NCBI GenBank assembly: GCA_965213865.1
Contig: OZ243928.1
Coordinates: 1,706,945 to 1,770,944, forward strand
Direction: 5' to 3'
From: Arenicellales bacterium
GTDB taxonomy: Bacteria > Pseudomonadota > Gammaproteobacteria > Arenicellales > JAJDZL01
Length of the DNA stretch: 64,000 nucleotides
Under the pieces are notes generated by a model. It saw only the letters and a program-made list of their open reading frames with translations. It was not told the DNA's origin and did no database searches. Shown here piece after piece: positions 17,698 to 64,000 of this stretch (within the stretch, counting starts at the first letter, position 1; each line of letters starts with the position of its first letter). A program made the position numbers and the translations under genes.

Positions 17698-17739
17698 ATA
17701 AAAACCAAAATGAGCGTCCTAGGGTAAAGGGAGGTTCGT

Positions 17740-20062: not shown

Positions 20063-20611
20063 ATGACAGCGAGTTTGGCAGTACACGCCTACGACACGCT
20101 CTCGATTGCGAGGAATCTTGAGCAAGACTATGCGTTCAACAAGAGGCAGGCAGAGGGAATTGCGAGGACCATTCACGAGCATCTGGTCGCCAATGTCGCG
20201 ACTAAGGATGATCTTGAGAAACTTGCTGCTGAGCTGCGCGGCGAGATACGCGCTGAGGTGGGCGAGCTGCGCACCGAGATCGCCGAGATGCACACTGAGA
20301 TCGCCGGACTGCGCACCGAGATGCACACTGAGATCGCCGGACTGCGCACCGAGATGCACACTGAGATCGCCGGACTGCGCACCGAGATGCACACTGAGCT
20401 GGGCGAGCTGCGCACCGAGATGGGCGAGCTGCGCACCGAGCTGGGCGAGCTGCGCACCGAGCTGCGCACTGAGATCGCCGGACTGCGCACTGAGATCGCT
20501 GCGATCAATAACAGAATTGACAATTTGAGCAAGACCCTGACGATCCGCACCGGTGCGATGATCGTGGCCGCAATGGGATTTTTCTCAGCATTGCAAGCCG
20601 TCATCGGCTGA
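20063..20611 (+). CDS. DUF1640/CCDC90-like membrane-anchored coiled-coil protein (paralogue 2, 182 aa, repeat-expanded stalk)
   Basis: Head, neck and C-terminal anchor nearly identical to the 11786 protein; central tandem repeats. Confidence 0.78.
   Translation: MTASLAVHAYDTLSIARNLEQDYAFNKRQAEGIARTIHEHLVANVATKDDLEKLAAELRGEIRAEVGELRTEIAEMHTEIAGLRTEMHTEIAGLRTEMHTEIAGLRTEMHTELGELRTEMGELRTELGELRTELRTEIAGLRTEIAAINNRIDNLSKTLTIRTGAMIVAAMGFFSALQAVIG
20283..20398 (+). repeat. Perfect 33-bp coding tandem repeat, 3.5 copies (CCGAGATGCACACTGAGATCGCCGGACTGCGCA; 11-aa unit)
   Basis: Units start at 20283, 20316 and 20349, with a partial unit from 20382. Confidence 0.95.
20396..20458 (+). repeat. 21-bp coding tandem repeat, 3 copies (GAG(C/A)TGGGCGAGCTGCGCACC; 7-aa unit)
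   Basis: Units start at 20396, 20417 and 20438; one mismatch. Confidence 0.93.
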
Positions 20612-41933: not shown

Positions 41934-42429
41934 TGACTGGCTGCTCGATCTTGCAGCGGTCAGCATGGTTTTGACTGGCCTGCCTGCGCACAGACGAGCG
42001 CATTCGTGGCAATCCAGAAAGCAGAGGAGCCGGGCTTGTTTGGGGTACAGAAAATCTCATTGAGTCATTGCGAGAGCCAGCCATCGTCCAGACTACTGGG
42101 TGTGCGTCAAATTTATGCAATTGTCAGCCGCCAATGGATTGGTCATGCCCAAAGATATCAAAGCGACTGCTTTTTCTCTGGCAGCCCGATGCAGTGATAG
42201 AATTGGCGATGACAATGAGATATTGCATGCCGCTTGGCTTGAATTGAGCTGAGAGCCGGCGGCGTCTTGGCATCCGTCCTGAGCCGCACCGCTTGAAACG
42301 CAAAGGCCTTGTTGCCGGAATCCCTTGCACCGCATCCGATGCCGGCTCATGCGGGGATGCCTGCTGCCTCAATGCCTCAATATCGGTTCAACGGGCGGCG
42401 GCTCGGCTTGACAATCAGGTTTGCATGGG

Positions 42430-42453
42430 AAAAGGGCGGCCTGCGGGCCGCCC
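42430..42453 (-). terminator. Intrinsic terminator of the Cys-rich secreted protein gene
   Basis: GGGCGGCC-TGCG-GGCCGCCC stem; T4 tail on the minus strand, 27 nt after the stop. Confidence 0.75.
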
Positions 42454-42479
42454 CTCGAATGCGTGCTGCCGGACGGAAG

Positions 42480-43328
42480 TCAGGGGAAGCGCACATCGAC
42501 CGTGATATCGCACCATTTGGCATAGGCCGGCGCACCGGCCGCCTCCAGCTCCGGCGTGGGCCAGCTGGGCGGGCCGCAATGCCTGGCAGTCCGAAAGGTG
42601 GCCCCATAGCCTGCCTGATTGGCAACAAAGGCAAAGGCCGGGGGCGGGGTTGGGTTTTTCAAGTCCCAGCAGCGCTGCACATTGGAATCGGCTGCATGAC
42701 ACACCTTGCCCCAGACCCGCACCCGGAAGATGCCGTTGCTCGGGGTCCGCTCCGGGGTGTATGAGCTGTCTTGCTGATTCGGCGTATTCCCGGTGTACTC
42801 GCCAGGCAGGGGGGTTGTGTCACCAGTGCACGCCGGGTACCCTTTATTGGCGGTGAACGTCCTGCCCATGAAGGTCACGGAGCGCGAGCACTTGCGGGTC
42901 GTATAGGTCTGGCAGGCGATGGCGATGGGCCCGCCGCGGGAATAGGTGCCGGCCGGGTTGTGGAATTCGACCCCTCCGCTTACTCCCGCACTGTGGGCGC
43001 AATGGGAACCGGGTCCCACGCCGAAGGTCGTCCTGTCGTGAGTCATTCCGCCCGGACTGTCCAGGGCCTCGATCGTCAGGTTGTTGATCACGCCGCTCAA
43101 GGTCCGACTGTTAACCTGGGGGGCGGGCCAGACCAGATTCTGGTTCAGACGGGTGGCGTAAGTGATGGCGGGATCCGAAACCCGTGAAACTCTGGCCGCC
43201 CGATCTGTCTGTGCCGATGCGGGCAGGGAAAGGGCCGTGCTCAGCAGAATGGCGGCGAAAGCCTTGAGAAAGACGGCGAGGGGGGGGGGTTGCCGCAATT
43301 TTCCTGTCATTTTCTTATCTCTTATCAT
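42480..43328 (-). CDS. Hypothetical Cys-rich secreted protein with a C10 tract in the signal-peptide region (in frame)
   Basis: Leader ...RQPPPLAVFLKAFAAILLSTALSLPASA-Q, 8 Cys in the mature part, extended -10 upstream and terminator downstream. Start at 43328 or 43310. Confidence 0.72.
   Translation of the reverse strand: MIRDKKMTGKLRQPPPLAVFLKAFAAILLSTALSLPASAQTDRAARVSRVSDPAITYATRLNQNLVWPAPQVNSRTLSGVINNLTIEALDSPGGMTHDRTTFGVGPGSHCAHSAGVSGGVEFHNPAGTYSRGGPIAIACQTYTTRKCSRSVTFMGRTFTANKGYPACTGDTTPLPGEYTGNTPNQQDSSYTPERTPSNGIFRVRVWGKVCHAADSNVQRCWDLKNPTPPPAFAFVANQAGYGATFRTARHCGPPSWPTPELEAAGAPAYAKWCDITVDVRFP
43280..43289 (-). repeat. C10 homopolymer (coding strand) in the leader of the secreted protein
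   Basis: Ten consecutive G on the + strand. Confidence 0.95.
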
Positions 43329-43362
43329 TTTCTTATCCTCGAAACAGCATAATGTTGCGGCG

Positions 43363-43371
43363 ATTATACCA
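43363..43371 (-). promoter_or_regulatory. Extended -10 promoter element TGGTATAAT
   Basis: Perfect TGnTATAAT 35 nt upstream of the ATG at 43328. Confidence 0.6.
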
Positions 43372-43450
43372 GTTTCAGCCGGCAAAACGACGGATTTTCA
43401 AGCTGAGCGACTGTCGTTTAGCGAGATGCTTCCGGTTTTTATGTATTTGC

Positions 43451-43473
43451 GGCTTATAATGATGGCTTATAAT
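43451..43473 (+). promoter_or_regulatory. Direct repeat GGCTTATAAT x2 (13-bp period), each containing TATAAT
   Basis: Located in the divergent intergenic region upstream of the autotransporter. Confidence 0.45.
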
Positions 43474-43605
43474 AAGAATAAGTATTTCATTCCATTTCAG
43501 GCAAGTGAAAAGCCTCAGATGCAGGTGACTTCATGGCAGGCAGGCAAGTCGAGCTCGCCTGCTTGGAGAGGCAGGTTCAGCCTATTCATGCAGGAGCAGA
43601 GACCA

Positions 43606-46600
43606 ATGATAGCATTTAAAACTGATTTATCCGCGCGCCAAGGACTTGAGATGCGGGGGGGGGCAGAAGCTATAAACTGAGCAGCAAACTTTGCTGCGCT
43701 GCCATTCTCTGGATTCTGTCGCTTGCCGCTGCTCCGGCGAAGGCCGCTGAGGAATGCGGCGACCTCAACGACCCTGCGAGTTCTCAAACCATCGACTGCA
43801 CGACTGAGAATTACAAGGCGGAAGAAGATGGCAATGTCTTCTATGAGCTGCCGGACAGCTTGACAGATCCGGACTACAGTTTCACCCTGAGCCTGAAATC
43901 CGGCACCCGGATTGTCGGCCAGCGCGACCGGTCCCAGGTTCCCGAAGAGGAACAGAAGGACGATCACGGCCGGCGGGCTGACTCACCATGGGCGATTTAC
44001 GGTGCCGTCTTCGTCGATACCGGATTCGATCACGAAGGCAACATCACGATCCGGTCAGCGGCTGACATCGAGGCGGGCAACCGCACTGGTGTCACAATTG
44101 GCCAAGCAACCATTCGGGCCCGCGGCATCTATGCGCGCCATCAAGGCAGGTCCGGAGACCTCAACATTCATCTTGCCGATGGCACCATTACCAGCACCGG
44201 CCCCGGTGTCCACGCCCATATCGACAGCCAAAAAAGCGGCGAAAACAGCGGCAATTTCAAAGATGCTGAATTCGAGGGGAACATCGACATTGATTTGTCA
44301 CCCGGTGCGACCATCCGAACATCCGGCGACAACGGGGACGGCGTCCAGGCGCACCACCGCGGCCGCGGGAAGATCCGCCTCACCGCGACCGGGAAGGCGG
44401 ATTCTGAAGAGCCCGACATCGGGACCACTGGCAATGATGCCGGCGGGATCTCGGTTGAAATGGGCAATTGGTGGGATGATTTTGCCGATTCAGCGAGAGG
44501 GGACATCGGTATCGATTTGAGGAATTATTTCATCCGCACGACGGGCGACAGGGGAGTGCTCTTCGGTTCGGGCTTGAAGGTTTACAATTACATCTCCGGT
44601 GACATTGACGTTGATGTGACCGGCAGCCGGATCAAGACGCAGGCCCAGCGCGGTATCTATGCGTGGCGGGTGCCAGGTGAACGTGCCGGCGGCAGGATAG
44701 ATATCGATGTCAGGAACTCGGAGATTGCGACGGGGGTCCAGGGAAAGAATGGCAATCATGCCATCATTGCCCAGCACCAGTCGACCGGCACTGGCCTTAT
44801 CGCCATTGATGTTGACAGCAGTGAGATCTCGACGCGGGGCGCAGACTCCCACGCTGTCTACGGCCGGCATTTCGGCGCCGGCGATGTGGTCATCGCCGCG
44901 CGCGACAGCGAGATCTCGACGCAGGATGCCGGGTCGTACGGCATCTACGGTCGCCACCAGTATTTGTCAAACTATAGGTTTTGGGCGAGGTTGCTAGCGC
45001 GCGGGACGCCCGCGGCGAACTATGCGGTAAGAATCGATGTCGATGGCGGCCGCATCTGCGCGGATCGCGATGACCGAGGGACCGAGGACCCCGGCGATGA
45101 TATCTGCCAGGGGACGGGCATTGTGGCCGAGATCGCCGAGAGCGGGCAGAATGACCGGGCTGAGGTGGATCTCGCCGGGGCGGTGGTCCAGGGCAGCACA
45201 GCCGTCGAGTTCAGGGGTGTCAAGGGCGCTCTCCGCCTGACCGACAGCCATCTGGCGGGCGATATCCGGTTTGCCAGGGGCGACTACAATGATGCGCTGC
45301 ATGTAAAGCTGGACCGCACCTCGCGCCGGCTGGCCGGAGACATCGATTTCTCCGGCGGCGAGGATAAGATGACGGTCGACATTGCCCGTGGGCAGCATTT
45401 GGCCTTCGACGGGCCGATCAGCATCAGCGGGCTGGAGTCCCTGACCAAGCGGGGCGACGGCTGGGTGCGCTTCGCTGACAATGTCAACTTCGAGGACGGC
45501 AGCCTGCGGCTGGAGGACGGGCATCTGGTCGTGGCTGGACGGCTGAATCTTGGCAACGGCCGGCTGACCATAGAAGATGCCGGCCGGCTGGTGTTCGAGG
45601 CGGGCCAGGATGTCAGGCCTGACGACAGCAAGCTGTTGTGGTTCGGGCAGCTCCTTGCTGGCGAAGTGCACTTTGCGGACGCGCAGGGCGATCCGGCGGT
45701 GTTTCTGCAGCTGAGCGAGGGACTGGACGAGGCGGCGGCCGATCAGGTGCGGGAGTTTCTGGCTGCGGGCCCATTGGCGCTGATCACCGGCCGTCTGACA
45801 CAGGGAAGCAATGATGATACGGTGATGAGTCTGGCGCTCCGGTCATTATCAGATGGCACGGTCTCGGAAGTCGGAACGGTCAATCCCGCAACCGGCGTCG
45901 CCACCATCACAGAAAACATGAAAGGCCGGATCGGCCGGCTGAAATTGCCGGGGACGATCTCTCTGGCATCGATTCCTTCAAGCGGCGGCACAGCCGGCGG
46001 CGGAAGTGGCAGCGGCTCAGGTGGCAGCGCCGGTTCCGGCTCCAGCGGCGGCATCCTGGGGTTGGGCCTGCTGGCGGTGCTGCTGGCATCCTTCGGCGCG
46101 GATGAGGAGGCGGAGGAGGCGAGCTGGGCCGGCTACGGCATCGGCGCACCCGGGGCGGCTTATGCCGTCGAGCGTGTTGACGGGGGCGACCGGATGTGGA
46201 TGCGCACCGCGCGGCCGATGACCGGGATCACGCAGGCCGGCGTCAGCGGCGCGGCGGCGGGCTTGAGCCTGCACGAGGGCGATCATTTCTACCTGGGCGC
46301 CTCCGCGGCGCCTGCGGTGACCGCCCGGGTCGACTCGCTGAATCTGGCGGCCCGGGGCGCGGTGCACTCGCTGCGCGCCGGCTGGCGCGCCGAGCGCTGG
46401 TTCGCCGGGCTGCGCCTGTCGCAGGGCGACTTCCAGGTGGCGACGTCCGTTGCCAATCCGGCGACCAGCGGCGCTTTGGCGAGCCGCTTCGCGCTGCGCA
46501 GCGCACAGGCACAGCTGCGGGCGGGCCTGCACCTTGATGCGGGGGCGCTGCGATTCACGCCGTCGGCCGCGGTGCAGGCGGGGCGCCTCGCGCACAGCGC

Positions 46601-46991
46601 GCATGTGGCGGAAAGCCCGGCGCTGCGGGCGCGTGTCCCGGCCTTCTCGCAGGACTACACCGGCTGGCAGCTGGGGCTGCGGATGAGCGCGAGCCGGTGG
46701 CTGGATGCGGCCGGCGGCGGACGGTGGCAGCCGCAGCTGCAGTTCCAGACAATCCGCACGACTGCGGCGGGCGGCGCGGTGAGCCTGCGCCAGGCGGATC
46801 GGCTCGGAGCGCTGAGCTTCAATACGCCGGCCGGGATCCGGGCCCTGCCGAAGGCGGTTCACTCGCTGCGCCTGGGCGCCCGGGTGCGTCCGGCCGGCCA
46901 TCGGGGGATTTGGAAGCTCGGCCTCGCCGGCCTGGAGGCGGACGGCGAGGCGCATTATGCGGCGCTGGCAGCCTACCAGCTGCGGTTCTGA
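43606..46991 (+). CDS. Type Va autotransporter, frameshifted at a G9 tract in the signal-peptide region
   Basis: Passenger repeats I.T.G....GI.A.H, amphipathic beta-strands and terminal YQLRF. The frame containing 43860 is open from 43650 and encodes a signal peptide, while the ATG at 43606 (with RBS) is in another frame. Confidence 0.78.
43655..43663 (+). repeat. G9 homopolymer at the 5' end of the autotransporter
   Basis: Read directly from the sequence. Confidence 0.95.
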
Positions 46992-47055
46992 GCGACACCG
47001 GGTTCAGCATCCGTATCACCAGGAGGCGATCTCAGGCCACAGCGGCACTGCGGAC

Positions 47056-47084
47056 AAAGGGGGCGGCAAAGGCCGCCACCTTTT
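47056..47084 (+). terminator. Intrinsic terminator after the autotransporter
   Basis: AAAGGGGGCGGC-AAAG-GCCGCCACCTTTT stem-loop with one mismatch and a T tail. Confidence 0.65.
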
Positions 47085-47271
47085 GCTGGCTCTTGCTGGG
47101 TGCTGGGCTCGTTCCTGCCATGGTGAGATATCAGTTTTATGCGGCGGGGGAGCGGGTCGCCGCGAAGTCTGGCAGACCGGTGTTATGTGCGGCACAAATC
47201 TCAAGTCCACTGAAATTCAAAAACGACAGGCCGCTTGACAGCGTTCGCGTGTTCATCCGGATTTTTTCTGT

Positions 47272-47299
47272 TTGATCCTCTGGCGCTCAACGATATAAT
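47272..47299 (+). promoter_or_regulatory. Putative sigma70 promoter of the HIT gene
   Basis: TTGATC-16 nt-TATAAT. Confidence 0.4.
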
Positions 47300-47344
47300 T
47301 CGCCAGCCGAATCCTGATTGTTTTGTGTTATTGGCGGAGGAGTC

Positions 47345-47689
47345 GTGGCCGAAGAGACCCTATTCAGCAAAATTATTCGTAAAGAAATACCCGCCGACAT
47401 TGTCTATGAGGATGAAGCGGTGATGGCATTTCGGGATATTTCACCGCAGGCCCCGGTGCACTGCCTGATTATTCCTAAAAAAGTCATACCAACAGTCAAT
47501 GATGCAACCGCAGAGGATGAGCGGGTTCTAGGGCGGCTGTTTACGGTTGCCGCCAAGCTGGCCAGGGAGAATGGCATTGACCGCAGCGGCTATCGCTTGT
47601 CCGTGAATTGCAATGCCGATGGCGGACAGGAAGTGTTTCATCTGCATATGCACTTGATGGGCGGTCGCCGCCTGCAGCGCATGGGGTAG
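47345..47689 (+). CDS. hinT: Histidine triad nucleotide-binding protein
   Basis: [38 protein letters not shown]. Confidence 0.88.
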
Positions 47690-47793
47690 CGGTGCATATT
47701 GCTTCCAATCGTCCGAGCGCCGGCTTTGGTCCGATTTCGGATTGGCTGCGCCCCGGCTCGCAAGTGCGGATGATTCTGCGGTATTGATCGAGG

Positions 47794-48945
47794 ATGTCAA
47801 TACAGTTTTCCGAAAACGAATACGAAAATCGACGCGAGCGAGTCATTGCGCAGCTCAAAGAAGCGCAATTGCATGGCATTTTGCTCTTTCGGCAAGAGAG
47901 CATGTATTACCTCACAGGCTACGATACTTTCGGCTACTGTTTCTTTCAATGCCTGTTCATCGGGGTCGATGGGCAGTATGCATTGCTGACGCGCGCCCCG
48001 GATAAATTGCAGGCGCAGCTGACCTCTACGATCAAGGATATTCGCATCTGGGTTGATCAGGCGCATATCAATCCTGCCAGCGACTTGATCGCGATGCTTG
48101 ACGATTTCGGCTGCCAGGGAGAGTCACTTGCCGTTGAATTGAATGCCTACGGCCTCACTGCCGGCTTGTGGGAGCGGGTTGGCCCGCCGCTCAAATCCTA
48201 TTGCAATCTTGTCGACCAGTCAGAATTGGTCAGCAAGCTGCGTGTGATCAAGTCACCGGATGAGATAGCCTATACCGAAAAAGCGGCAAAGCTGGCTGAT
48301 GATGCGCTTGATGAGGCGCTGGATCTCACCGGACCGGGTGTCTATGACGGTGACATCCTGGCGGCGATGCACAGCGCGATCTACCGCGGCGGCGGCGATG
48401 ATCCGGCGAATGAGTTTATTTTGGGATCCGGTGAAAATGCACTGCTCTGCCGGTATCATACTGGACGGCGCCATTTGTCCTCGAAAGATCAGCTCACCAT
48501 CGAATTTGCAGGTGTCTACCGACACTATCATGCATGTCTAATGCGGACTCTCTTGGTAGGTCAGCCGGACCGGCGCCAGATCGCGATGTATCAGGCCTGT
48601 CAAGAGGCGATGCTGACCTGTCAGGAAGCGCTCAAGCCTGGTGCGACTGCCGGTGATGTGTTTGATGCGCATGCACGCGTTTTGGATCGCTGCGGATATC
48701 GCGACCTGCGGATGAACGCGTGCGGTTACAGCTTGGGTGCAACTTACGCGCCAACCTGGATGGATTGGCCGATGTTTTATTCCGGCAACTCGGTTGAGAT
48801 CAAGCCGAATATGGTATATTTCGTGCACATCATTTTGTTTGATTCTGCCAGCGGACTGGCGATGACGCTGGGGGAGACAGTGGCTGTGACTGAGGATGAG
48901 CCGCGCCGCCTGAGCCGGCATCATCTGGATTTGGCGATCAAGTGA
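47794..48945 (+). CDS. M24 Xaa-Pro peptidase family protein (creatinase/ectoine hydrolase-like)
   Basis: RVIKSPDEI, IEFAGVYRHYHACLMRT, GYSLG, GETVAVT. Several metal ligands of typical M24B enzymes appear replaced. Confidence 0.75.
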   Translation: MSIQFSENEYENRRERVIAQLKEAQLHGILLFRQESMYYLTGYDTFGYCFFQCLFIGVDGQYALLTRAPDKLQAQLTSTIKDIRIWVDQAHINPASDLIAMLDDFGCQGESLAVELNAYGLTAGLWERVGPPLKSYCNLVDQSELVSKLRVIKSPDEIAYTEKAAKLADDALDEALDLTGPGVYDGDILAAMHSAIYRGGGDDPANEFILGSGENALLCRYHTGRRHLSSKDQLTIEFAGVYRHYHACLMRTLLVGQPDRRQIAMYQACQEAMLTCQEALKPGATAGDVFDAHARVLDRCGYRDLRMNACGYSLGATYAPTWMDWPMFYSGNSVEIKPNMVYFVHIILFDSASGLAMTLGETVAVTEDEPRRLSRHHLDLAIK

Positions 48946-49046
48946 GACTGGCCTGGCGCGACTGTGCAGATGCGATCTTGTCGGTCCTGCAATCGCAAGT
49001 CGGCTGCCCGTACTGTTCGCTGAGGTGCTTTGTTTGAGATTTGCCC

Positions 49047-50597
49047 ATGCCCGAGACCAGACGCTTAGGGGGCCGCGCCGCCAGAAAAGCCATTCGAGCC
49101 GCGCCTTTAGCCGAAGAAGATAAAGCCGTTCGGCCGGGCATGCGCGGCGGGCGATTTGCGCCGCTGACTGATGCTGACATCATCGCAGTCAATGATGCGG
49201 TGATGGATGTGCTCGAAAATATCGGCCTGTCACAGGCGATTCCGTCATGCATTGAGCTGGTCACGCAGGCCGGCGGCCAGTACACGCCCGAAGCCAGACT
49301 GACTTTCCCGCGATCTTTGGTTGAGGACACGATTGCCGAAGCCTGTCGGGATTATGTTCTGTGCGGACGCGACCCTCGACACGATTTGGAACTTACCGAC
49401 ACGCGAGTTTATTTCGGCACCGCCGGGGCTGCTGTCCATGTGGTCGATCTTGAGACGCGCAAATACCGCGAGTCCACCCTGAAAGACTTGTACGATATCG
49501 CGAGAATCGTCGATCAGATGGAGCATATTCATTTCTTCCAGCGCCCATTGGTGTGTCGGGATATGGAAATTCCGTATGAAATGGATCTGAACACCTGCTA
49601 TGCATGTATCACCGGCACCTCAAAACATATCGGTTCAAGCTGGGTTTTGCCTGAGCATCTGGACACATCAGTTGAGATGCTGCATATTGTTGCCGGGGGA
49701 GAGAAGCAGTGGCGTGAGCGGCCCTTCGTCAGCTGCTCGTCTTGTTTTGTGGTGCCGCCGCTGCGTTTTGCAGAAGATGCCTGTGCGGTGCTTGAGCAGT
49801 CGGTGCGAGCGGGCATGCCAGTACTGCTGCTGGCGGCCGGACAGGCGGGCGCAACGAGTCCGGCATCACTGGCCGGTGCGGTAGTGCAGGAAACCGCTGA
49901 GACGCTTGCCGGTCTGGTTTATGTCAATGCAATCAAGAAAAAACACCCCGCGATTCTCGGCATTTGGCCGTTTGTCTCAGACTTGCGGACCGGGGCCATG
50001 AGCGGCGGCAGCGGCGAGCAGGCGGTGCTGATGGCCGCCTGCGGTCAGATGGGACGCTATTATGACCTGCCCACTGGCATTGCGGCGGGGATGGCAGATT
50101 CCAAACTGCCTGACTCACAGTCCGGGTTCGAGAAGGGCTATACCACAACTTTAGCCGGACATTCTGGCGCCAACATGGTCTATGAGGCCGCTGGCATGCA
50201 TGCCAGTCTGCTGGGTGTCAGTCTGGAAAGCTTTGTTGTCGACAACGACATGCTCGGCGCTGTCAATCGATCCATTCGCGGCATTGAGATTAATGATCAG
50301 TCGCTGTCCACGGAGGTTATGCGTGACGTTTGTATTGGCGGTCCAAGCCATTTTTTAGGTCATGATCAGACGATGGCCTTGATGCAGAAAGATTATGTTT
50401 ACCCCGATGTCGGCGATCGCACCAGTCCCAAAGAATGGGCGGAGCGCGGCTCAACCGACGTGATACAAAAAGCGCAGCTGCGCGTCGACGAGATCTTATC
50501 GAATCATTTCCCGCGCTACGTCGATGATGCCACTGATGCGCTGCTTCGAGAGCAATTCCCGATTCGGCTGCCTAGAGAGCTGATGTCGCCCGGATGA
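49047..50597 (+). CDS. Trimethylamine methyltransferase (MttB) superfamily, non-pyrrolysine
   Basis: GATSPASLAGAVVQ, SDLRTGAMSGG, DSKLPDSQSGFEK, YEAAG. No in-frame TAG. Confidence 0.87.
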   Translation: MPETRRLGGRAARKAIRAAPLAEEDKAVRPGMRGGRFAPLTDADIIAVNDAVMDVLENIGLSQAIPSCIELVTQAGGQYTPEARLTFPRSLVEDTIAEACRDYVLCGRDPRHDLELTDTRVYFGTAGAAVHVVDLETRKYRESTLKDLYDIARIVDQMEHIHFFQRPLVCRDMEIPYEMDLNTCYACITGTSKHIGSSWVLPEHLDTSVEMLHIVAGGEKQWRERPFVSCSSCFVVPPLRFAEDACAVLEQSVRAGMPVLLLAAGQAGATSPASLAGAVVQETAETLAGLVYVNAIKKKHPAILGIWPFVSDLRTGAMSGGSGEQAVLMAACGQMGRYYDLPTGIAAGMADSKLPDSQSGFEKGYTTTLAGHSGANMVYEAAGMHASLLGVSLESFVVDNDMLGAVNRSIRGIEINDQSLSTEVMRDVCIGGPSHFLGHDQTMALMQKDYVYPDVGDRTSPKEWAERGSTDVIQKAQLRVDEILSNHFPRYVDDATDALLREQFPIRLPRELMSPG

Positions 50598-50641
50598 GTG
50601 GCGCAGCGGTGCGAATCTGCACCGCCTGTTGATCGCTGAGA

Positions 50642-52162
50642 TCAAGGGTTGAAGCGTGGAAATCTCGCCATTTGTGCCATTTCGTCGCAATTCTGATGAG
50701 TGCGCACATAGGACTGCGCAGCATCTTTCAGCGGCTGATAGTCCCAGGCAACACCGGGATTGTGCCGCGCTGCTGCCTGCACCAGAAGCCTCGATTGCTG
50801 ATCGGCAATGATGTCCTGTCGAGTTCTTTCCAAGTCCCATCTGGCATGAACCTCGCTGGCAAATGACTTGACGATGCTTTGATGCGATGGCTGCGGCGCC
50901 AGATTATTGAGCTCGTCGGGGTCATCGACAAGATTGAACAGCATCGGCGGGTCGATTTCGCAGTGAATGTATTTCAGAGGGCCGCGCCGGAGCATCACCA
51001 TCGGATGAGAAGTGCATTCGGCTGAATACTGGCTGACCACAGTGCGATCGGAACAGTCGCCATTCTCGGTGAGCAGATTGCACAGGCTGTGTCCATCAAG
51101 TTGGTCCGATGCGGTTCCTGCGCCGTCCGCGGCAAGTTCCACTAAAGTGGGCAGCAGATCAACTGTTGAGCACACGCTGGGAATCGCTGCGCTGCGGATG
51201 CCGGGTCCTGCGATGATCAGCGGCACTCGTGCGGCTTGCTCGAAAAAGCACATTTTGTACCACAGCCCGCGTTCGCCGAGCATATCGCCGTGATCTGCGG
51301 TGAACACCACAATGGTTTTCTCCAGCAGGCGGGTTTTCTCCAGCGTATCAATGAACTGTCCAAGCCAGTCATCCACGTAGGAGGTGTTGGCATAGTAGGC
51401 TTGTCTTGCCTGGCGGATCAAGCATTCTGCGGGCGGATCAACATCGGCCTGCATGCCTGAAATGAGCCGCTGAGTGTGCGGGTCCGCAGACGCTGAATCG
51501 AGATTTATGCGCGGCAAGTCGATTTCCTTTTCTGCATACAGGTCCCACCACTTTGAGCGTGCGACGTAAGGATCATGCGGATGGGTGAATGAAGCCACCA
51601 TGAAGAATGGAGCTGAATCGGGATTGCGGGCGTAGTCGTAGAGCTTGCGGATGCCATGAAATCCTGTTTCATCGTCAAACTCAAGCTGAAAAGTCATTTC
51701 AGCATGACCTGCTTCTCGCACCGAACTCATGTTGTGATAAAAGTCGTCATTGCGCTCATCGGCAGTTTCCCAGTTGGGTGTGAACGCGTAATCGGCTGGA
51801 TAGATGTCGGTGGTCAGCCGTTCGGAAAAGCCGTGCAGCTGATCCGGGCCGACAAAGTGCATTTTTCCAGTCAGGCAGCTTTGGTATCCGATACGAGCGA
51901 GGTAGTGACAGACTGTCGGAATCGCAGAAGAGAATTCTGCGGCGTTGTCGTAGGCCCGAATACGCCACGGCAATTGTCCTGCCAGCATCGAAAATCGGGC
52001 TGGGGCACACTGTGGATAGGGCGTATAGGCTGCATCGAAGCGGCAGCCTCGCTCTGCCAGCCGATTCATGTGGGGCGTCTGAACGATGCGATGACCATAG
52101 GCGCCGGTGTAATGCGGCGCCAGCTGGTCTACCATCAGCACTAGAATATTCGGCGATTTCAT
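50642..52162 (-). CDS. betC: Choline-sulfatase
   Basis: PNILVLMVDQL, CAPAR, GKMHFVGPDQLHGF, SFTHPHDPY, DHGDMLGERGLWYKM. Confidence 0.88.
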   Translation of the reverse strand: MKSPNILVLMVDQLAPHYTGAYGHRIVQTPHMNRLAERGCRFDAAYTPYPQCAPARFSMLAGQLPWRIRAYDNAAEFSSAIPTVCHYLARIGYQSCLTGKMHFVGPDQLHGFSERLTTDIYPADYAFTPNWETADERNDDFYHNMSSVREAGHAEMTFQLEFDDETGFHGIRKLYDYARNPDSAPFFMVASFTHPHDPYVARSKWWDLYAEKEIDLPRINLDSASADPHTQRLISGMQADVDPPAECLIRQARQAYYANTSYVDDWLGQFIDTLEKTRLLEKTIVVFTADHGDMLGERGLWYKMCFFEQAARVPLIIAGPGIRSAAIPSVCSTVDLLPTLVELAADGAGTASDQLDGHSLCNLLTENGDCSDRTVVSQYSAECTSHPMVMLRRGPLKYIHCEIDPPMLFNLVDDPDELNNLAPQPSHQSIVKSFASEVHARWDLERTRQDIIADQQSRLLVQAAARHNPGVAWDYQPLKDAAQSYVRTHQNCDEMAQMARFPRFNP

Positions 52163-52473
52163 TGATTGATGCATTCCGTACAAGAAAATTGGAATTGTAC
52201 CTGATAAGCAGCCGCAGGCTTGCGCATCTTCACCCGCAATCACACCGGGCAGAAATTCAGTCTCTGCCGGACGTGGATTGCAGTTTTTGGCAAGAGTTTC
52301 AGCAGGCAATCAAGTGGCTTGTGCATTTTTTCAAGACAGAATGCTGTCCAGATAATCAAGGTGTGGAAGCGGCATGGCGCAGGCAATTCAGCGTTGCGAG
52401 AATCTGCAAGCAGGTACAATGAATTCCACACATTGAAACACCTGAAATTTTTCCACCTGAGTCCAATGCGAAT

Positions 52474-53361
52474 ATGAATCAAGAAGTTGTCATCACCTGT
52501 GCAGTAACAGGTTCTGGAGAGACGCAGCACAAGCATCCTGATCTGCCGATTACACCGCAGCAGATCGCCGATGCCTGCATTGAGGCTGCCAACGCTGGCG
52601 CCGCGATCGTGCATATTCATGTGCGCGACCCGCAGACCGGCGCCGGCGCGCGCGATCACGAGTCCTTCACCGAAGTCGTGCACCGGGTCCGCGCGAGCGG
52701 CATTGATGTTGTGATCAACCTGACGACCGGCATGGGCGGTGACTATGTGGTTGGCGAGCACAATCCGACAGAGCCCGGCGAGGGAACTGATTTCGTATTG
52801 CCGCTGGAGAGAGTCAGTCATATTGACAGCCTGCTGCCAGAAATCTGCTCGCTTGATTGCGGCACCATGAATTTTGGCGATGGCAATCTGCTTATGGTCA
52901 ATACGCCCGATCATCTGCGCATTGCCGCGAGGCATATTCAGAAGACTGGGATCAAGCCTGAGTTGGAAGTGTTTGACACCGGTCATGTCTGGATGGCAAA
53001 CCGCATGGTTGAGGAGGGCTTGATCGATGAGCCGCCGCTTTATCAGATTTGTCTCGGCATTCCCTACGGCGCGCCGGCGACGACCGCGGCGATGAAGGCG
53101 ATGTGTGAGATGCTGCCGGCAGGCGCCAATTGGACGGCGTTTGGCATCAGTCGCCATCAGATGCCCATGGCGGCGCAGGCAGTTTTGCTCGGGGGACATG
53201 TCAGAGTTGGATTGGAAGACAACCTGTATTTGAAAAAGGGAGAGTTTGCCACCAACGGCCAGCTGGTCGAAAAGGCAGTCAGTATTGTAGAGATGCTCGG
53301 CGCTCAAGTTGCGAGTCCACAAACGGCGCGCGAGAAGTTCAAGCTGACCAAGCAGATCTAG
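52474..53361 (+). CDS. 3-keto-5-aminohexanoate cleavage (BKACE) family enzyme, CdhC-like
   Basis: IITCAVTG, HIHVRDP, SLDCGTMNFG, ELEVFD, VRVGLEDN. Confidence 0.87.
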   Translation: MNQEVVITCAVTGSGETQHKHPDLPITPQQIADACIEAANAGAAIVHIHVRDPQTGAGARDHESFTEVVHRVRASGIDVVINLTTGMGGDYVVGEHNPTEPGEGTDFVLPLERVSHIDSLLPEICSLDCGTMNFGDGNLLMVNTPDHLRIAARHIQKTGIKPELEVFDTGHVWMANRMVEEGLIDEPPLYQICLGIPYGAPATTAAMKAMCEMLPAGANWTAFGISRHQMPMAAQAVLLGGHVRVGLEDNLYLKKGEFATNGQLVEKAVSIVEMLGAQVASPQTAREKFKLTKQI

Positions 53362-53407
53362 CCTGCTTGTGCTGAATGTGAAACGCTGATTCTGCTGCCG
53401 CCCGATG

Positions 53408-53560
53408 ATTGATGCGCATGGGCTGCAAACGACTGCGGGCAGTCGCAAGGCATTCGACTGCTACGAGCAGGCGGTTGATGAGATGCTGCGCCTTTTGCCT
53501 GTCTGCGAGTCGACCGCTGAGACAGCTGTCAATGAATACTGCAATTTCCCGATGGCACAC
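53408..53560 (+). pseudogene. 5' stub of a TTC38-like TPR protein
   Basis: IDAHGLQTTAGS...YEQAVD...F.MAH resembles the N-terminus of bacterial TTC38-like proteins as recalled; similarity ends after MAH. Confidence 0.45.
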
Positions 53561-53694
53561 TCATCCACACTGCCGATCGCATCGCCAGCCTGCCCCATCA
53601 GGTCCATGAGCTCCTCAAAACGACACTCCATCGCCGGGTGCCCGTCCGTAAACCGGTTCAATCTCGCCCGCCTTTCTGATACCGGCTGACTCAT
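53560..53694 (-). pseudogene. 5' stub of an unidentified gene on the opposite strand
   Basis: MSQPVSERRARLNRFTDGHPAMECRFEELMDLMGQAGDAIGSV looks coding and runs head-on into the TPR stub. Confidence 0.3.
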
Positions 53695-53918
53695 TGCGCA
53701 AAACCTATCGCGGGTGAATATTGTCCCTATACCCTAAACGTTGCGCTTCACTTTCAATCGCACCCAAAAATACGCAAAATGCGTGATTTTTCGTATAAAA
53801 TCATGCATGGAAGAATAAGATTAAATAACATTGAATATGGCTGGACCGGTGACGGCGCAAAGCCAAAGCATATTTCGGAAAAGAAGATAGCAGCAACCAA
53901 GCCTGAAAGGAGCAAACC

Positions 53919-54669
53919 ATGAAATTCAAAAAAGCGTTTACCCCCCCCTTACAAGCTAGCAGTACTCACTGCCGCGCTGGCGGCCCTGACCATGATCCCG
54001 CCGGCGTGGGCACAACAGATGCTGCCGGAAATCAGCATAGATTATGCGGACGGCGTCAGTGAAACTCAGGCCTTTGCCGAAACCATCGTTCAGCCCTGCA
54101 ACAACACCGCCAGGGGCGGCCTGCCGGTCCAGATCCGGGCCAGCCGTCCCGCCAACGGCGTGACGGTCAATACCATGGCTTTCACCGTCTCCGGTTATGA
54201 CCGGCTTCGGGACCATGGCGTGCCCCCCTATGTCGACCCAAGTGCTCAGAATGGAGGACCCGTTGTCTACCGCCCCAGCGGCGCCGCGACCTATACGGGC
54301 AATTCAACGGGATGGTTTCGACTGAACCAGTTTAGCGGCGGCAGGGGAAGTCCCTGCTTCCCGAACGACGTCCTCATCACCGACGACACTGTCATTGAGG
54401 TCGTGCTGATGCCCGGCAATGGCTACACGATCAACCCGGACATGCGGTCGGTTCGGCTCACTGTTGAGGATGACAGCGAAGAGGCATGCGATAACTTAGA
54501 GGAAATTGGCCGAAGAGCTATGTCAAGCAATGCGCCGCTCTTGTACAAGGTGCGGAACGGCAACCTCAACGATACCTGCATCTGTGCAACCGAAGCCCAG
54601 GTGGACAAGTACCGACTGAAACCCGAACTGATGTGTGACGATTCACCCTGGCCAGGGTCAGGCAGCTAA
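53919..54669 (+). CDS. Secreted Calx-beta-like protein, frameshifted at a C8 tract in the signal-peptide region
   Basis: AAAGGAG RBS and ATG at 53919; the h-region YKLAVLTAALAALTMIPPAWA lies in the 53992 frame. VVLMPGNGYTINP...VRLTVEDD resembles the end of a Calx-beta domain; 6 Cys. Confidence 0.68.
53941..53948 (+). repeat. C8 homopolymer in the leader
   Basis: Read directly from the sequence. Confidence 0.95.
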
Positions 54670-54686
54670 CCGCACTCAACGAACTG

Positions 54687-54715
54687 AAAAGGGCGGTATT
54701 GCGACCGCCCTTTTT
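54687..54715 (+). terminator. Intrinsic (possibly bidirectional) terminator
   Basis: AAAAGGGCGGT-ATTGCG-ACCGCCCTTTTT, 17 nt after the stop. Confidence 0.85.
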
Positions 54716-54747
54716 CGGATGCTAAATTACGCCACTTTCGTATATAA

Positions 54748-54930
54748 CTCCCTCAGTTTATATGCATAAATAAAGTTGCTCTGATTTATCCCGCCACCAC
54801 TGAGTTTCAGAAGCCGCTGCCGCCGTTCAAGTTCCAATACGGAAATTTAGAGTTGCTCTGCTTGCCGTTCGATGTCAAAGATCCAAAAAATAGTGTTTGC
54901 ATTGCAATGAATCAGCTGGAAAATGAATAA
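54748..54930 (+). pseudogene. C-terminal remnant of an McrC-family restriction protein
   Basis: KVALIYPATTEFQKPLPPFKF...LLCLPFD, preceded by a frameshifted LYA(Y/stop) trace; no start codon. Confidence 0.55.
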
Positions 54931-59567: not shown

Positions 59568-61124
59568 TCACATGCCCCAGACGGTCACCCTGCGGCCGCC
59601 GGCTGAGGCCTCGCGCCGGAACACCTTCTCATCCCAGGAGCGCTGCTCCGAGCGGTCAAAGACCACCAGATGGCCGCTCGCCGCGCCGCACCTGTCCATG
59701 TAGCCGCCGATCTGAGCCAGGCCCTCCTCCACCGTGCGCTCCAGGCCGCTGCGGCGCAGCTTGCACTCGATCACCTCCCGCTGCCGCTGCGGACCCCACT
59801 CGATCAGCAGGTCGGTGCGCATTCTTCCCAATCCGTACTCGCGCTCGATGCGCCCGCCGGCGTTGACCACCCGCTGCAGGAACGCCTGCAGCAGCAGCTG
59901 CGGACCTGCCTCTTTATAGTCAAAGCGCTCCACCCAGTGCTCGGACTGCTCTCTGAAGAACGCCTGGAACGATGCCATCAGCTTGTCCATCTGCAGTTTT
60001 CCGTCCTCGACAAACCAAGCCGTCTCATGCGGCAGCGCCTCATCGGCCGAGGTGATCAGCTCGCGCGGAATCACCTCGCGGTAGATGGCGTTGGCAATCT
60101 GGATCCGCTGGCCCGGACTGATCAGGCCCAGGTCCCGCACATACTGCACATCGTCCGGCTGGTACGGCTGCGGCACAGCGCCGCTGACCAAAGGCTCGAT
60201 GACCCGCCTGACGCGTCCCTCGCGCAGCTTGTCGGCCAGCTGGTCCAGATGCGTGTCGCGGCGCCGGATCAACTCCTCCCGGGCGTCAATCACATCATCG
60301 TGCCCGATGGTCACCCTGCGGTCCCTCACTTTCTTCAAGGCCTCATGCGCCAGCGCATTGACCAGCCACGGCTGCCCGGCGGTGGAGTCCCATACCTCGG
60401 CCAGCGCCTCCCCGCTCCACGGCTGGCCGGTCTCTTCGGTGTGCTGGCGCAGCAGGGCGCGGGTCTCGGCCGCGGTGAAGTCCCCCATCCGCAGGGACTC
60501 CGCCTTGATGTTGAAGGCGCTGCCGCCGGTGATGATCGCCTTCTCGGCGCCGGAGTGGATGCGGTAGTCTCTGACATCGCGGATGCCGCACAGGATCACG
60601 CACTGCGGAAAATGCTTCGGCCGCTCGGCATAGCCGGCGCGCAGCTGGCGCAGCACCGAGATCAGCGTGTCGCCGACCAGCGCGTCGATCTCGTCGAGCA
60701 TGACCACCAGCGGCCGGGAATCGTCCCGCGCCCAGCGCCGCAGCACCTCTCGCAAGGCGCCGTGCGGCCCCGAGGCCTTGAGAATATCCTCCCATCTGTC
60801 CTCGACGAAACGGTCCTCAAGGTGATCCACCGCTGAGCCGGAAAGGCCGCTGAGAATCGCCTGCATCGCGACCTGCGTATCTTCCCGCGCGGCCTGCGCC
60901 GGCTCGACATTGACATACACCGCGCGATAGCGATGGGACTGGTTCAGTTCGTCCATCAGGGCGAGCAGCGCCGAGGTCTTGCCCGTCTGGCGCGGGGCAT
61001 GCAGGATGAAATACCGCTTCTGCCCGATCAGCCCAAACAACTCATCCCGGTCCATGCGGTCCAAAGGCGCAATGTGATAGTTGTCTTCCGGCACAACCGG
61101 GCCGGCGGTGTTGAAAAATCGCAT
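59568..61124 (-). CDS. AAA-like ATPase with a C-terminal PD-(D/E)XK nuclease-like domain
   Basis: MRFFNTAGP, APRQTGKTS (Walker A), LDEID (Walker B), C-terminal RTDLL...IECK; GC-rich. Confidence 0.8.
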   Translation of the reverse strand: MRFFNTAGPVVPEDNYHIAPLDRMDRDELFGLIGQKRYFILHAPRQTGKTSALLALMDELNQSHRYRAVYVNVEPAQAAREDTQVAMQAILSGLSGSAVDHLEDRFVEDRWEDILKASGPHGALREVLRRWARDDSRPLVVMLDEIDALVGDTLISVLRQLRAGYAERPKHFPQCVILCGIRDVRDYRIHSGAEKAIITGGSAFNIKAESLRMGDFTAAETRALLRQHTEETGQPWSGEALAEVWDSTAGQPWLVNALAHEALKKVRDRRVTIGHDDVIDAREELIRRRDTHLDQLADKLREGRVRRVIEPLVSGAVPQPYQPDDVQYVRDLGLISPGQRIQIANAIYREVIPRELITSADEALPHETAWFVEDGKLQMDKLMASFQAFFREQSEHWVERFDYKEAGPQLLLQAFLQRVVNAGGRIEREYGLGRMRTDLLIEWGPQRQREVIECKLRRSGLERTVEEGLAQIGGYMDRCGAASGHLVVFDRSEQRSWDEKVFRREASAGGRRVTVWGM

Positions 61125-62072: not shown

Positions 62073-62400
62073 GCTTTCGATGCCCCTTGCTAATCAATAA
62101 TTTTTACAGCGACACGCCGGTGCTCGCCAAGTTCAAAAGGCAGAGATGCAGTGCCTAGATACACTTCAACCAGATCCGCGGCCAATTCGCTGCAAAGACT
62201 GTTCGCGAGTTTGGACCAGCCATCATCTTTTCCGGCCATTGAAAAAAAAACTTGGCGCGGCAAGAGACTGCGTCCATCGTAATCGATGTCAAGCATCCAC
62301 ATTGCAATTTTGTCGCTGCCGCCTGATTCCAGTGAGCCATTCGAAATGTTGTAGTAATCGAATCCATTGACTGTAACTTGATGCGAAGGCGATAAATTGC
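62060..62400 (-). pseudogene. C-terminal remnant of a type III R-M methyltransferase (Mod)
   Basis: VNGFDYYN..ESGG..IAMWMLDIDYDGRSL.PRQVFF.MAG...RVAVKIID* then frameshifted GIESLK; no methyltransferase core upstream. Confidence 0.7.
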
Positions 62401-62615: not shown

Positions 62616-63566
62616 TCACAATACTCTTTCGGTCAGATAGTGCGCGCATCCAGTCAGCGCAGCGTAATCATCTTCGATGACTGAGACGCCGAAATTCTGC
62701 ATAAAGCTGCTGAAACGGCCCTGGTCACAAAAGGCCTCGGCGAAGCCGTATTGCAGCAGGCGGGGGGCGATGGAGCGCGATACGCCGCCGACCAGAAATA
62801 TGCCGCCCAGCGGCAACAGGGTCAGTGCGAGATGGCCAGCTTGCATGCCGAGCATCCGTACGAAGATCCGCAGCGTTTGCTCAGCGCGGGCATCGCCCGC
62901 CGCCAGCGCATCAATGATGTCAGGCGCGCAGGCGGTTGAAAGCGTCTCATCCGAGCGGCCGAGCCAGGCGTGAATGTTCTCGATACCGCGGCCTGACAAA
63001 ACTTCCTCAGCATCAGCATATCCGCGGTGAGCCGCGATAAACTTTGCCAGCTCATGGTCTGCGTTCGTGCGGATTGGCATGCTGACATGACCGGCTTCCG
63101 CCGGTGCGGCAAAACGGCCGCCCGGCAAGTGGTAAACGGCAGTCGCATTGAACCCGGTGCCGACACCAATGACGAGTTGCGTTGCATTCGCTGCCGCTTC
63201 GGGCTGTACGATAATTTCCCGCAAGCCGGTTGAGGGCATTTGCCCCAGCGTGTGGCCATACGCCTGTAAATCATTCATAATTTCGACATGACGGATGCCG
63301 GTGGCTTGCGCAACCGTCGCGGTGTCGATACGCCAGTCGACGTTTGTGCATACAGCAGTGTCATCGTGTACCGGACCCGCAACCGCGACGCAGGCATGAT
63401 GGCATTCGATTGGTTTCGAGTTTGCCAGGTAGTGCTGCAGCAGCGCGGCGATATCGGAATACTCCGCATTGCGGTACGGTCGGATTGAGTCCTCTATCAC
63501 GGCTGACTCTTTGGCGAGTGCAACGCGTGTATTTGTGCCGCCGATATCCGCAACGAGTGAGTACAT
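62616..63566 (-). CDS. glk: Glucokinase
   Basis: LVADIGGTNTR, AVAGPV, MNDL, GVGTGFN, EAGH, EEVLSGRG. Confidence 0.88.
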   Translation of the reverse strand: MYSLVADIGGTNTRVALAKESAVIEDSIRPYRNAEYSDIAALLQHYLANSKPIECHHACVAVAGPVHDDTAVCTNVDWRIDTATVAQATGIRHVEIMNDLQAYGHTLGQMPSTGLREIIVQPEAAANATQLVIGVGTGFNATAVYHLPGGRFAAPAEAGHVSMPIRTNADHELAKFIAAHRGYADAEEVLSGRGIENIHAWLGRSDETLSTACAPDIIDALAAGDARAEQTLRIFVRMLGMQAGHLALTLLPLGGIFLVGGVSRSIAPRLLQYGFAEAFCDQGRFSSFMQNFGVSVIEDDYAALTGCAHYLTERVL

Positions 63567-63580
63567 GCTGCCGGATGGAG

Positions 63581-64000
63581 TCAGTCGCCGACACGATGCC
63601 CGCTGGCATCGAAGAAATGACAATGCTCCGGTGCGAACTGAAGTCCTGCCTCAGATCCGTAAGCGGATTCGGCATCTCCGGCGACCCGAATTGTCAGAGC
63701 TCCGAGCGGCCCGCAATCGATGACCAAAAATGTGTCGGCTCCAAGATATTCAATGACATCCACCTTGCCGGTGCATTGTCCATCACCGGGATTGCACAGC
63801 CTGATGTGCTCAGGTCTGACGCCGAGATGAGTCGGGCGCCCTCGGCCTGCAAAAATGCCCTCGCCGCCGCCCTCGAGCCGAAAACGCCCTCTCTCGGCGG
63901 TACAGGGCAGGATATTCATCTTGGGACTTCCGATGAATTGCGCGACGAACAGATTCTGTGGATGCCGGTAGAGCTCGCGGGGTGTGCCGATCTGTGAAAT
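63581..64000 (-). CDS. Sugar ABC transporter ATP-binding protein (MalK/UgpC family), C-terminal part, runs off the window
   Basis: GTPRELYRHPQNLFVAQFIGSPKMN, LGVRPEH, IEYLGADT. Confidence 0.87.
   Translation of the reverse strand: MSQIGTPRELYRHPQNLFVAQFIGSPKMNILPCTAERGRFRLEGGGEGIFAGRGRPTHLGVRPEHIRLCNPGDGQCTGKVDVIEYLGADTFLVIDCGPLGALTIRVAGDAESAYGSEAGLQFAPEHCHFFDASGHRVGD

Follow-up and report, generated by a model that had tools for sequence, protein, structure and literature searches.

Slipped-strand phase variation is textbook biology in Neisseria, Haemophilus, Campylobacter, Helicobacter and Bordetella. Outer-membrane protein genes of Helicobacter pylori carry switches of this kind in their signal sequences, built from CT dinucleotide repeats, and the lic1 locus of Haemophilus influenzae has two start codons in different frames upstream of a tetranucleotide repeat, an arrangement in which two out of three length classes can be translated. 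Here we describe three G/C homopolymer tracts, each at the 5' end of a different gene for a predicted exported protein (genes A, B and C), in a stretch of 64,000 nucleotides (nt; 55.6% G+C) from an Arenicellales bacterium (assembly GCA_965213865.1, contig OZ243928.1, positions 1,706,945-1,770,944 of the forward strand). This whole stretch is hereafter called the window, and we argue that its three tracts are probably switches of the same general type.

The closest described systems are the autotransporters NalP (AspA) and MspA (AusI) of Neisseria meningitidis, which are switched by a poly-C run in the coding sequence, NalP being ON at 7, 10 or 13 C (PMC3723659). Larger repertoires, or phasomes, are described in three published accounts (PMC6321876, PMC2823697, PMC1891110), according to which Campylobacter jejuni, Helicobacter and Bordetella pertussis have many G/C tracts of ~8-13 nt that are polymorphic between strains and lie at the 5' ends or in the promoters of surface-structure genes, with promoter and coding tracts combined in B. 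pertussis. Across prokaryotes, 5' homopolymer tracts have been surveyed as reversible inactivation devices by Orsi et al. 2010 (PMC2831843).

Gene B of the window and its homologs are the nearest counterparts of NalP and MspA, with which they share a type Va architecture, a predicted translational poly-C switch and a tract length that varies among strains; the ON arithmetic of NalP is also theirs. They differ in that B has no detectable sequence relationship to these proteins outside the beta-barrel and an uncharacterised passenger, in that the B tract is poly-G in the window and either G or C, at varying positions, in the homologs, and in that the bearer is an uncultured marine Arenicellales rather than a human mucosal commensal or pathogen. 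Compared with the Campylobacter, Helicobacter and Bordetella phasomes, the tracts reported here reach C22 and C31 in relatives, longer than is typical there; the switched families A, C and D (the last found in a relative) are orphans without Pfam or PDB relatives; and the bacterium is environmental or symbiotic, whereas those are pathogens. Finally, the tracts found by Orsi et al. to be over-represented and biased toward 5' ends were short poly(A) and poly(T), in contrast to the long poly(G) and poly(C) runs described here, which belong to a genome of 56% G+C with an otherwise strong depletion of runs of this kind.

Results

Long G/C tracts lie between start codon and signal-peptide core in three genes

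A regular-expression scan of the window returned exactly three G/C homopolymers of at least 8 nt (Table 1), the same three that a model-made first-pass annotation of the sequence had picked out by eye. In the run-length spectrum, 32 G/C runs of 5 and five of 6 are followed by none of 7 and by one each of 8, 9 and 10. The window's own decay (0.18 per base) predicts ~0.19 runs of at least 8, with a Poisson probability of ~1e-3 for three or more, and low-order Markov models predict 0.17-0.73. The discontinuous spectrum and the ~0.19 runs expected set the long runs apart from the tail of the background distribution, as a class of their own.

Table 1. Positions of the three genes, their tracts and the surrounding segments, numbered within the 64,000-nt window
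Feature	Position	Strand	Basis or state
Gene A, predicted exported Cys-rich orphan protein of 282 aa (P0084)	42480..43328	-	Open reading frame and translation; ON
Tract A, C10 on the coding strand (G10 on the forward strand)	43280..43289	-	PPP, codons 14-16, in the signal-peptide n-region
A/B divergent intergenic region, presumably holding both promoters	43329..43650		Sequence
Gene B, type Va autotransporter, 1113 aa at G10	43651..46991	+	Translation; OFF as assembled; alternative in-frame ATG at 43606
Tract B, G9, 4 nt after ATG 43651	43655..43663	+	OFF, stop at 43678-43680
Match of B to autotransporter beta-barrel (approximate, residues ~865-1059)	46242..46826	+	PF03797
Gene C, predicted exported orphan protein, 249 or 250 aa at C7 or C10	53919..54669	+	Translation; OFF as assembled
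Tract C, C8, 22 nt after ATG 53919	53941..53948	+	OFF, stop at 54060-54062
Accessory segment with genes A and B	41934..47271		blastn against L001: 5.3-kb insertion; L001 has only 175 bp here
Variable slot with gene C	53562..54770		L001 has instead 2.7 kb with a TPR-like protein and McrBC-like restriction genes

In all three genes the tract begins 4-39 nt past the start codon, upstream of the hydrophobic core (h-region) of a signal peptide, in agreement with the first-pass annotation. For the 54 greedily called genes of the window, with signal peptides judged from their sequence and from a hydrophobicity heuristic, three tracts would all land in the first 75 nt of any gene with a chance of ~2.5e-4, and in the first 75 nt of genes with signal-peptide-like starts with a chance of ~3e-6. 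As assembled, gene A is in frame (ON) and genes B and C are out of frame (OFF); each of the three is ON at a tract length of 7, 10 or 13, and when in frame all three proteins have canonical Sec signal peptides. The annotation had assigned these frames correctly (C10 in frame for A, G10 restoring B, C8 of gene C running into its stop with C7 or C10 restoring it). It had also presented the genes as all ON at length 10, which is correct as arithmetic but does not hold as a property of the system, since a common phase has a 1/9 chance and homologs are ON at lengths of 14, 23, 31 and 12. The window contains 59 A/T runs of at least 6 nt, yet its 54 open reading frames (ORFs) take up 86% of the sequence, and the assembly is without general homopolymer damage.

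Among the features by which contingency loci are recognised are a hypermutable repeat, a placement capable of switching expression, a surface or secreted product and polymorphism of the repeat. The window has G/C repeats of G10, G9 and C8 (hypermutability being expected from ~7-8 nt upward), of which G9 and C8 give early stops where 7, 10 or 13 restore full ORFs, and the products have Sec signal peptides in frame and include an autotransporter. Polymorphism of tract length within conserved flanks is found at homologous loci, which belong to relatives and not to the window's own strain. Taken together, these data suggest, with a probability that we put at about 0.8, that the three tracts are classical slipped-strand contingency switches. 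The proposal of the first-pass annotation that three unrelated genes for exported proteins carry such switches is supported by the tract lengths and frames of homologs, by near-identical assemblies that differ in a tract, and by tracts in promoter-like spacers, as described below.

Gene A defines an orphan family of predicted exported proteins

Gene A starts at ATG 43328 (or 43310), stops at 42480-42482 and encodes the N-terminus MIRDKKMTGKLRQPPPLAVFLKAFAAILLSTALSLPASA followed by Q, which, with C10 in frame, is composed of MIRDKKMTGKLRQ-PPP-LAVFLKAFAAILLSTALSLPASA followed by Q. Just inside its 5' end lies an 18-nt tandem duplication (43302-43337; coding-strand copies GATAAGAAAATGACAGGA and GATAAGAAAATGATAAGA), which copies the start-codon context and yields the two in-frame ATGs. 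A scan for the sigma-70 consensus upstream of A and B and upstream of C returned no promoter and no strong consensus match.

Homologs of A (n=31) are located nearly all on long contigs of the Arenicellales type. Eight Cys residues are invariant among 25 homologs, which bears out the description of the protein as Cys-rich in the first-pass annotation. No Pfam match was obtained for A, and its AlphaFold model, of moderate confidence (predicted local distance difference test [pLDDT] 72, core >90), has no PDB fold match at E<1 and nothing meaningful in the fold search. The family amounts to only 46 representative clusters among 1.84 billion proteins, and we take A to represent an orphan family of predicted exported proteins.

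The tract of gene A varies widely in the family. In a relative with an 87% identical protein (L081; contig tagged 2209x) the position is occupied by C9, which leaves the ATG out of frame and the gene OFF, and in another (L082) by C22, again out of frame and OFF. Full-length members have 3, 4, 5, 7 or 8 Pro at the tract site, and in other members the run is interrupted (PPFP) or lacking. Many A homologs have been called as N-terminally truncated proteins because their tracts are out of frame, as in L081 and L082.

Gene B encodes an autotransporter with a variably placed tract

With G9, translation of gene B from ATG 43651 yields a peptide of nine residues (MRGGAEAIN-stop), and translation from ATG 43606 yields the dead peptide of 24 residues that the first-pass annotation had reported. 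G10 produces an uninterrupted ORF of 1113 codons with the signal peptide MRGGGRSYKLSSKLCCAAILWILSLAAAPAKA followed by AEECG. There is no further stop in 1100 codons, and the gene is intact apart from its tract; the gene call is a remnant of 1043 residues starting at TTG 43860 (P0001).

When the C-terminal 314 residues of B were scanned alone, they matched PF03797 (E=4.8e-8; 33.5 bits, above the curated cut-off of 26), upholding the initial identification of B as an autotransporter; the match did not surface in a scan of the full-length protein at E<=0.01. PF03797 is also found in three of the B homologs (P0010, P0012 and P0013, among P0002-P0013), and the C-terminus of B (...YAALAAYQLRF) has the aromatic end residue of an outer-membrane beta-signal. 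These features identify B as a type Va autotransporter with an uncharacterised passenger, which has no Pfam match and in which a repetitive 'G..I.I.....I.T.G' pattern suggests a beta-helix.

Tracts in the B family differ in base, position and length. One homolog (L083) has C13 in an N-terminal extension and is OFF, with ON expected at 14, and its close orthologs L097 and L098 have C9 and are OFF, with ON at 10. L085 has C31 directly after ATGCGATTTA and is ON, L096 has G12 fourteen codons into the gene and is ON, and no tract is present in the B homolog of L084. In L018, the gene for a less closely related autotransporter (PF03797, 69.9 bits) carries G11 at its start. Because base, position and length all vary within the family, the pattern argues for a switch that would have been acquired repeatedly and independently rather than inherited as a motif.

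Gene C belongs to an exported family with two-frame starts in relatives

At C7 or C10, the N-terminus of gene C reads MKFKKAFTPP(P)YKLAVLTAALAALTMIPPAWA followed by QQ. The 239 codons downstream of the tract are open, the tract being the sole lesion, and the gene call is a remnant of 225 residues from 53992 (P0045). The first-pass annotation had assigned C to the Calx-beta proteins, which could not be substantiated. Gene C has no Pfam match even at E<=10, and its low-confidence model (pLDDT 63) yields weak beta-sandwich matches in Foldseek, none at E<=0.001; Calx-beta structures (3rb7, 3fq4, 2qvk) are among the top-probability matches of this pLDDT-63 model (0.80-0.89; E 0.06-0.19), amid generic beta-sandwiches. 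On the basis of this model, gene C possibly encodes a beta-sandwich protein.

Homologs of C form six clusters, some of them in metagenome-assembled genomes (MAGs) labelled Alphaproteobacteria, and family members occur in MAGs labelled Roseovarius, Aestuariivita or Rhodobacteraceae. This spread across classes points to horizontal sharing or to mis-binning.

The C family also provides large differences in tract length between closely similar loci. L086 has C11 and is in frame (ON), and L087-L090, four short-read assemblies from different pipelines, have C7, with flanks ~99% identical. In L086 (~5984-6024), and likewise in L087-L090, two ATGs that are 17 nt apart and in different frames precede the poly-C. 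Because of the second ATG, 17 nt upstream, the C7 allele can be translated as well, and the C11 (MKRFTPPPINL...) and C7 (MREHHHETLHPPINL...) alleles both read into one signal peptide (P0050, P0069). This arrangement resembles lic1 in its two starts in different frames, here leading to the same signal peptide, and differs from it in that the repeat is a homopolymer rather than a tetranucleotide and in that gene C of the window has no second start in an alternative frame. Elsewhere in the family, L091-L095 have a coding C11 at the position of tract C, the members of one cluster at 90% identity have N-termini with PPPP, HPPP or HPPPP or are truncated, and P0046 and P0051 have no tract at the homologous position.

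Tracts in promoter-like spacers and differences between near-identical assemblies

In three relatives an additional tract is located in a promoter-like spacer; in two of the three cases near-identical assemblies differ in this tract. In the first case, the B homolog of L083, L097 and L098 is preceded by a G10 or G11 that ends 5 nt before TACAAT. Over 5217 nt, L097 (690x) and L098 share 99.96% identity, with G10 versus G11 as the only indel between them. In the second case, a C-family gene of L091-L093, which also has the coding C11, is preceded at 430 nt by the promoter-like sequence TTGTCA-[A+C13 or C15]-TAGTGTATAAAT, in which L091 (7561-7573) has A+C13 and L092 and L093 (7559-7573) have C15, the loci being otherwise 99.8-100% identical. 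These loci come from two Illumina MAGs labelled Aestuariivita, with a contig G+C of 48-51%, and reflect either horizontal transfer of the C family between Gamma- and Alphaproteobacteria or mislabelled bins. Tract polymorphism among assemblies made from Illumina data only was also observed between P0052 and P0053.

The third case is family D, an orphan family of predicted exported proteins of ~210 residues represented by two paralogs in L084 (15654-16404 and 18481-19317, minus strand), whose 5' regions are 97% identical. Both have the spacer TTGACT...C10 or C11...TAGGGAT; one copy has a coding C11 and is OFF, and in the other the coding tract is interrupted, locking the gene ON. The A-family protein P0025 has almost the same N-terminus as family D (MTRLTRT..LPPPPLDRLTTAL), which hints at a possible exchange of 5' ends between unrelated genes. 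The idea of a 5' cassette shared at the DNA level across unrelated families found no support in blastn, where similarity was seen only within families; sharing of N-termini at the peptide level remains for P0025 with family D and for P0020 with P0009.

A census of 672 kb of Arenicellales sequence contained 15 G/C tracts of at least 8 nt, of which 10 lie at the 5' ends of ORFs with signal peptides and two (and a third, first scored as unclear) in promoter-like spacers; of the other two, one belongs to a non-secreted ORF, near its 5' end, and one is in frame in mid-gene. The loci L081-L098 were chosen through homology to A, B and C. In the unbiased part of the census, made up of the window and 25 anchored loci, five of the seven tracts are at the 5' ends of genes for secreted proteins. 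Tracts that depart from the signal-peptide pattern were a C13, read as PPPPP, close to the 5' end of a 215-residue ORF that is non-secreted (L011, 8715-8727), a G9 encoding GGG in mid-gene and in frame in a TRAP-type solute-binding protein (L035, 4312-4320) and a G8 inside an enoyl-CoA hydratase-family gene (L096, 17009-17016).

A proposed slipped-strand mechanism and its alternatives

In the mechanism that we favour, slipped-strand mispairing at replication would add or drop a base in a pure G/C run at a rate far above that of point mutation. With the run located between the start codon and the Sec hydrophobic core, any change other than a multiple of three would bring a stop within 9 codons in B or 47 in C; the frame shift, coming ahead of the h-region, would leave no exportable product and, with no downstream start able to restore export, the gene would be cleanly OFF. 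A compensating slip would restore the frame, lengths of 7, 10 or 13 giving the full exported protein. The spacer tracts of relatives would add a transcriptional, graded layer of control, and very long tracts (C22, C31) probably slip at transcription as well, making the OFF state leaky. Selection appears to act on the DNA and not on the peptide, because the tracts are pure homopolymers and not mixed CCN codons, G and C are exchanged within the B family, and spacer tracts are non-coding. From these sequences we infer reversible, high-frequency switching within the population, the products presumably being surface-exposed or secreted factors that face a host or phage.

Several points weigh against this reading. 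The tract lengths of the window are those of an assembled consensus, and its ON and OFF assignments may be wrong by one base. The related MAGs have the look of long-read assemblies, which are prone to homopolymer miscalls. Of the eight OFF alleles, six fall short of ON by exactly one base; this is no significant excess (binomial ~0.29) but is the pattern that systematic under-calling would leave. The single indel that separates L097 from L098 (G10/G11) could likewise be an artefact of assembly. Scans of Joint Genome Institute (JGI) metagenomes with alignments of A and C returned no homologs, which leaves the sampling of populations thin, and the census is partly biased by ascertainment, L081-L085 having been fetched by homology to A and B.

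Some of these points are shared with the alternative that survives best, in which the tracts are real, the OFF states of B, C and several homologs are homopolymer errors of long-read sequencing, and all three genes are in frame and expressed constitutively. The long-read-style names and coverage tags of the related contigs, the preponderance of OFF alleles one base short and the homopolymer nature of the sole indel between L097 and L098 are all as this explanation would have them. We nevertheless regard it as unlikely. Differences of 4 nt (C11 versus C7) and 13 nt (C9 versus C22) are beyond a one-base miscall, polymorphism is present among assemblies made from Illumina data only (L091 versus L092 and L093; P0052 versus P0053), and OFF states were called at 2209x, 690x and 181x coverage. 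The other homopolymers of the window break no genes, and errors of length cannot explain why tracts exist only at these positions.

Less probable still is that a poly-Pro or poly-Gly peptide in the n-region is kept for its own sake, for instance for EF-P-dependent control of translation or for export kinetics, with no switch involved. The ON alleles of several unrelated families do always encode Pro (or Gly) just before the h-region, but they do so with CCC (or GGG) codons exclusively, in pure homopolymers of up to 31 nt, and the tract is G in some members of the B family and C in others. Several proteins (P0017, P0018, P0020, P0046 and P0051) have no such motif in otherwise similar signal peptides, out-of-frame alleles are common, and equivalent tracts occupy non-coding promoter-like spacers. 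We likewise give very little credence to B and C being decaying pseudogenes of dispensable accessory islands, with the frameshifts as their first inactivating lesions: both genes do lie in segments absent from the closest relative and many homologs are called as truncated proteins, but the tract is the only lesion ahead of 1100 (B) and 239 (C) open codons, the single-site pattern recurs in independent lineages with differing tract lengths, and ON alleles with longer tracts (C31, C17, G12) argue that the tract is maintained.

Organism and genomic setting

The contig of the window is a 3.29-Mb chromosome. A scan of genome collections anchored on the M24 peptidase encoded between the tracts placed the window in uncultured Arenicellales (Gammaproteobacteria), with a best match of 90% protein identity and with many of the matches in chromosome-scale MAGs. 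Arenicellales are recurrently associated with sponges in the literature, and from this lineage and the study-coded contig names we infer that the organism lives in a sponge or a similar host. The neighbourhood has genes for choline sulfatase, an MttB-family methyltransferase and a creatinase-like peptidase, and a relative has dsr genes, a gene content in keeping with a host-associated way of life and with sulfur oxidation. An origin from a pathogen-like source was rejected, as a search of the window for the DNA uptake sequences of Neisseriaceae and Pasteurellaceae found none and the organism is an Arenicellales.

The flanks of the window are 85-96% identical in nucleotide sequence to the closest species-level relative (L001), and 85-90% identical around the A and B insertion (blastn). 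No homologs of A, B or C were found in 80 syntenic loci, and the three are therefore strain-variable accessory genes and not conserved neighbours. Flanking repeats, a tRNA and an integrase were looked for at the A and B island and none was found. The slot of gene C is a hotspot for accessory or defence genes, the TPR-like protein and McrBC-like restriction genes of L001 lying at 15768-18475 of that locus.

Between the two accessory segments, an Rfam gathering-level match to PYLIS_3, the pyrrolysine insertion element of mttB, was obtained at 50091-50190 (48 bits against 38). The surrounding ORF (49041-50597, plus strand) encodes a full-length MttB-family methyltransferase (Pfam MTTB, E=9e-115). 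Since this ORF is free of in-frame stops, its product is a non-pyrrolysine MttB homolog, and the Rfam match most likely reflects homology of coding sequence. Its neighbours, a choline sulfatase (50642-52309, minus strand) and the creatinase/prolidase-like M24 peptidase (47794-48945), suggest a cluster for the catabolism of methylated amines or osmolytes. Elsewhere in the window, the ORF at 20063-20611 (plus strand) contains a coding tandem repeat (20234-20496) of ~6 copies of a 33-nt (11-residue) unit, nested in 141-nt super-repeats (Tandem Repeats Finder score 393), which is the source of the over-represented 12-mer CTCGGTGCGCAG; the product is probably a coiled-coil-type repeat protein. The longest A/T homopolymer is an A9 at 62242-62250, apparently intergenic between the ORFs 59568-61124 and 62616-63623.

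Discussion

The mechanism proposed for genes A, B and C is a known one, and what would be new in such a repertoire, as the first-pass annotation suggested, is not how it works but its lineage, its ecological setting and its gene families. Full-text literature searches returned no description of repeat-mediated phase variation in symbionts of sponges or of other marine invertebrates. What appears to be new is where the switches occur (lineage and setting), which orphan families they act on and how extremely long the tracts can be.

A wider interpretation, to which we assign slightly less than an even chance, is that these uncultured and probably sponge-associated bacteria possess a sizeable phasome made up of the orphan exported families A, C and D and the autotransporters of family B, with switches acquired repeatedly and independently. 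Under this interpretation, the families would be shared by Arenicellales species, with C present also in MAGs binned as Alphaproteobacteria, and the switches would be located in n-regions and in promoter spacers, in some genes in both, and would extend up to C31. At the density of tracts found here, tens of such loci would be expected per genome.

The tracts also affect how such genes are annotated. Gene calls that begin at internal starts and lose the signal peptide include P0001 (43860-46991), P0045 (53992-54669), P0014, P0016 and P0002-P0006. Truncated or dropped calls of this kind hide exported proteins and inflate the pseudogene counts of long-read MAGs, a systematic annotation artefact.

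If the phasome interpretation is true, the resulting heterogeneity of surfaces within a population would serve as bet-hedging against phagocytosis or recognition by the host, or against phage, and contingency loci would extend from the mucosal pathogens of vertebrates to an ancient invertebrate symbiosis, with the orphan proteins marked as the molecules with which the symbionts face host or phage. Should sequencing reads confirm the switching, uncultured symbionts would share with mucosal pathogens a strategy of stochastic surface variation, and the genes that carry tracts would single out, from the thousands of hypothetical proteins in these MAGs, a short list of candidates for interaction with host or phage.

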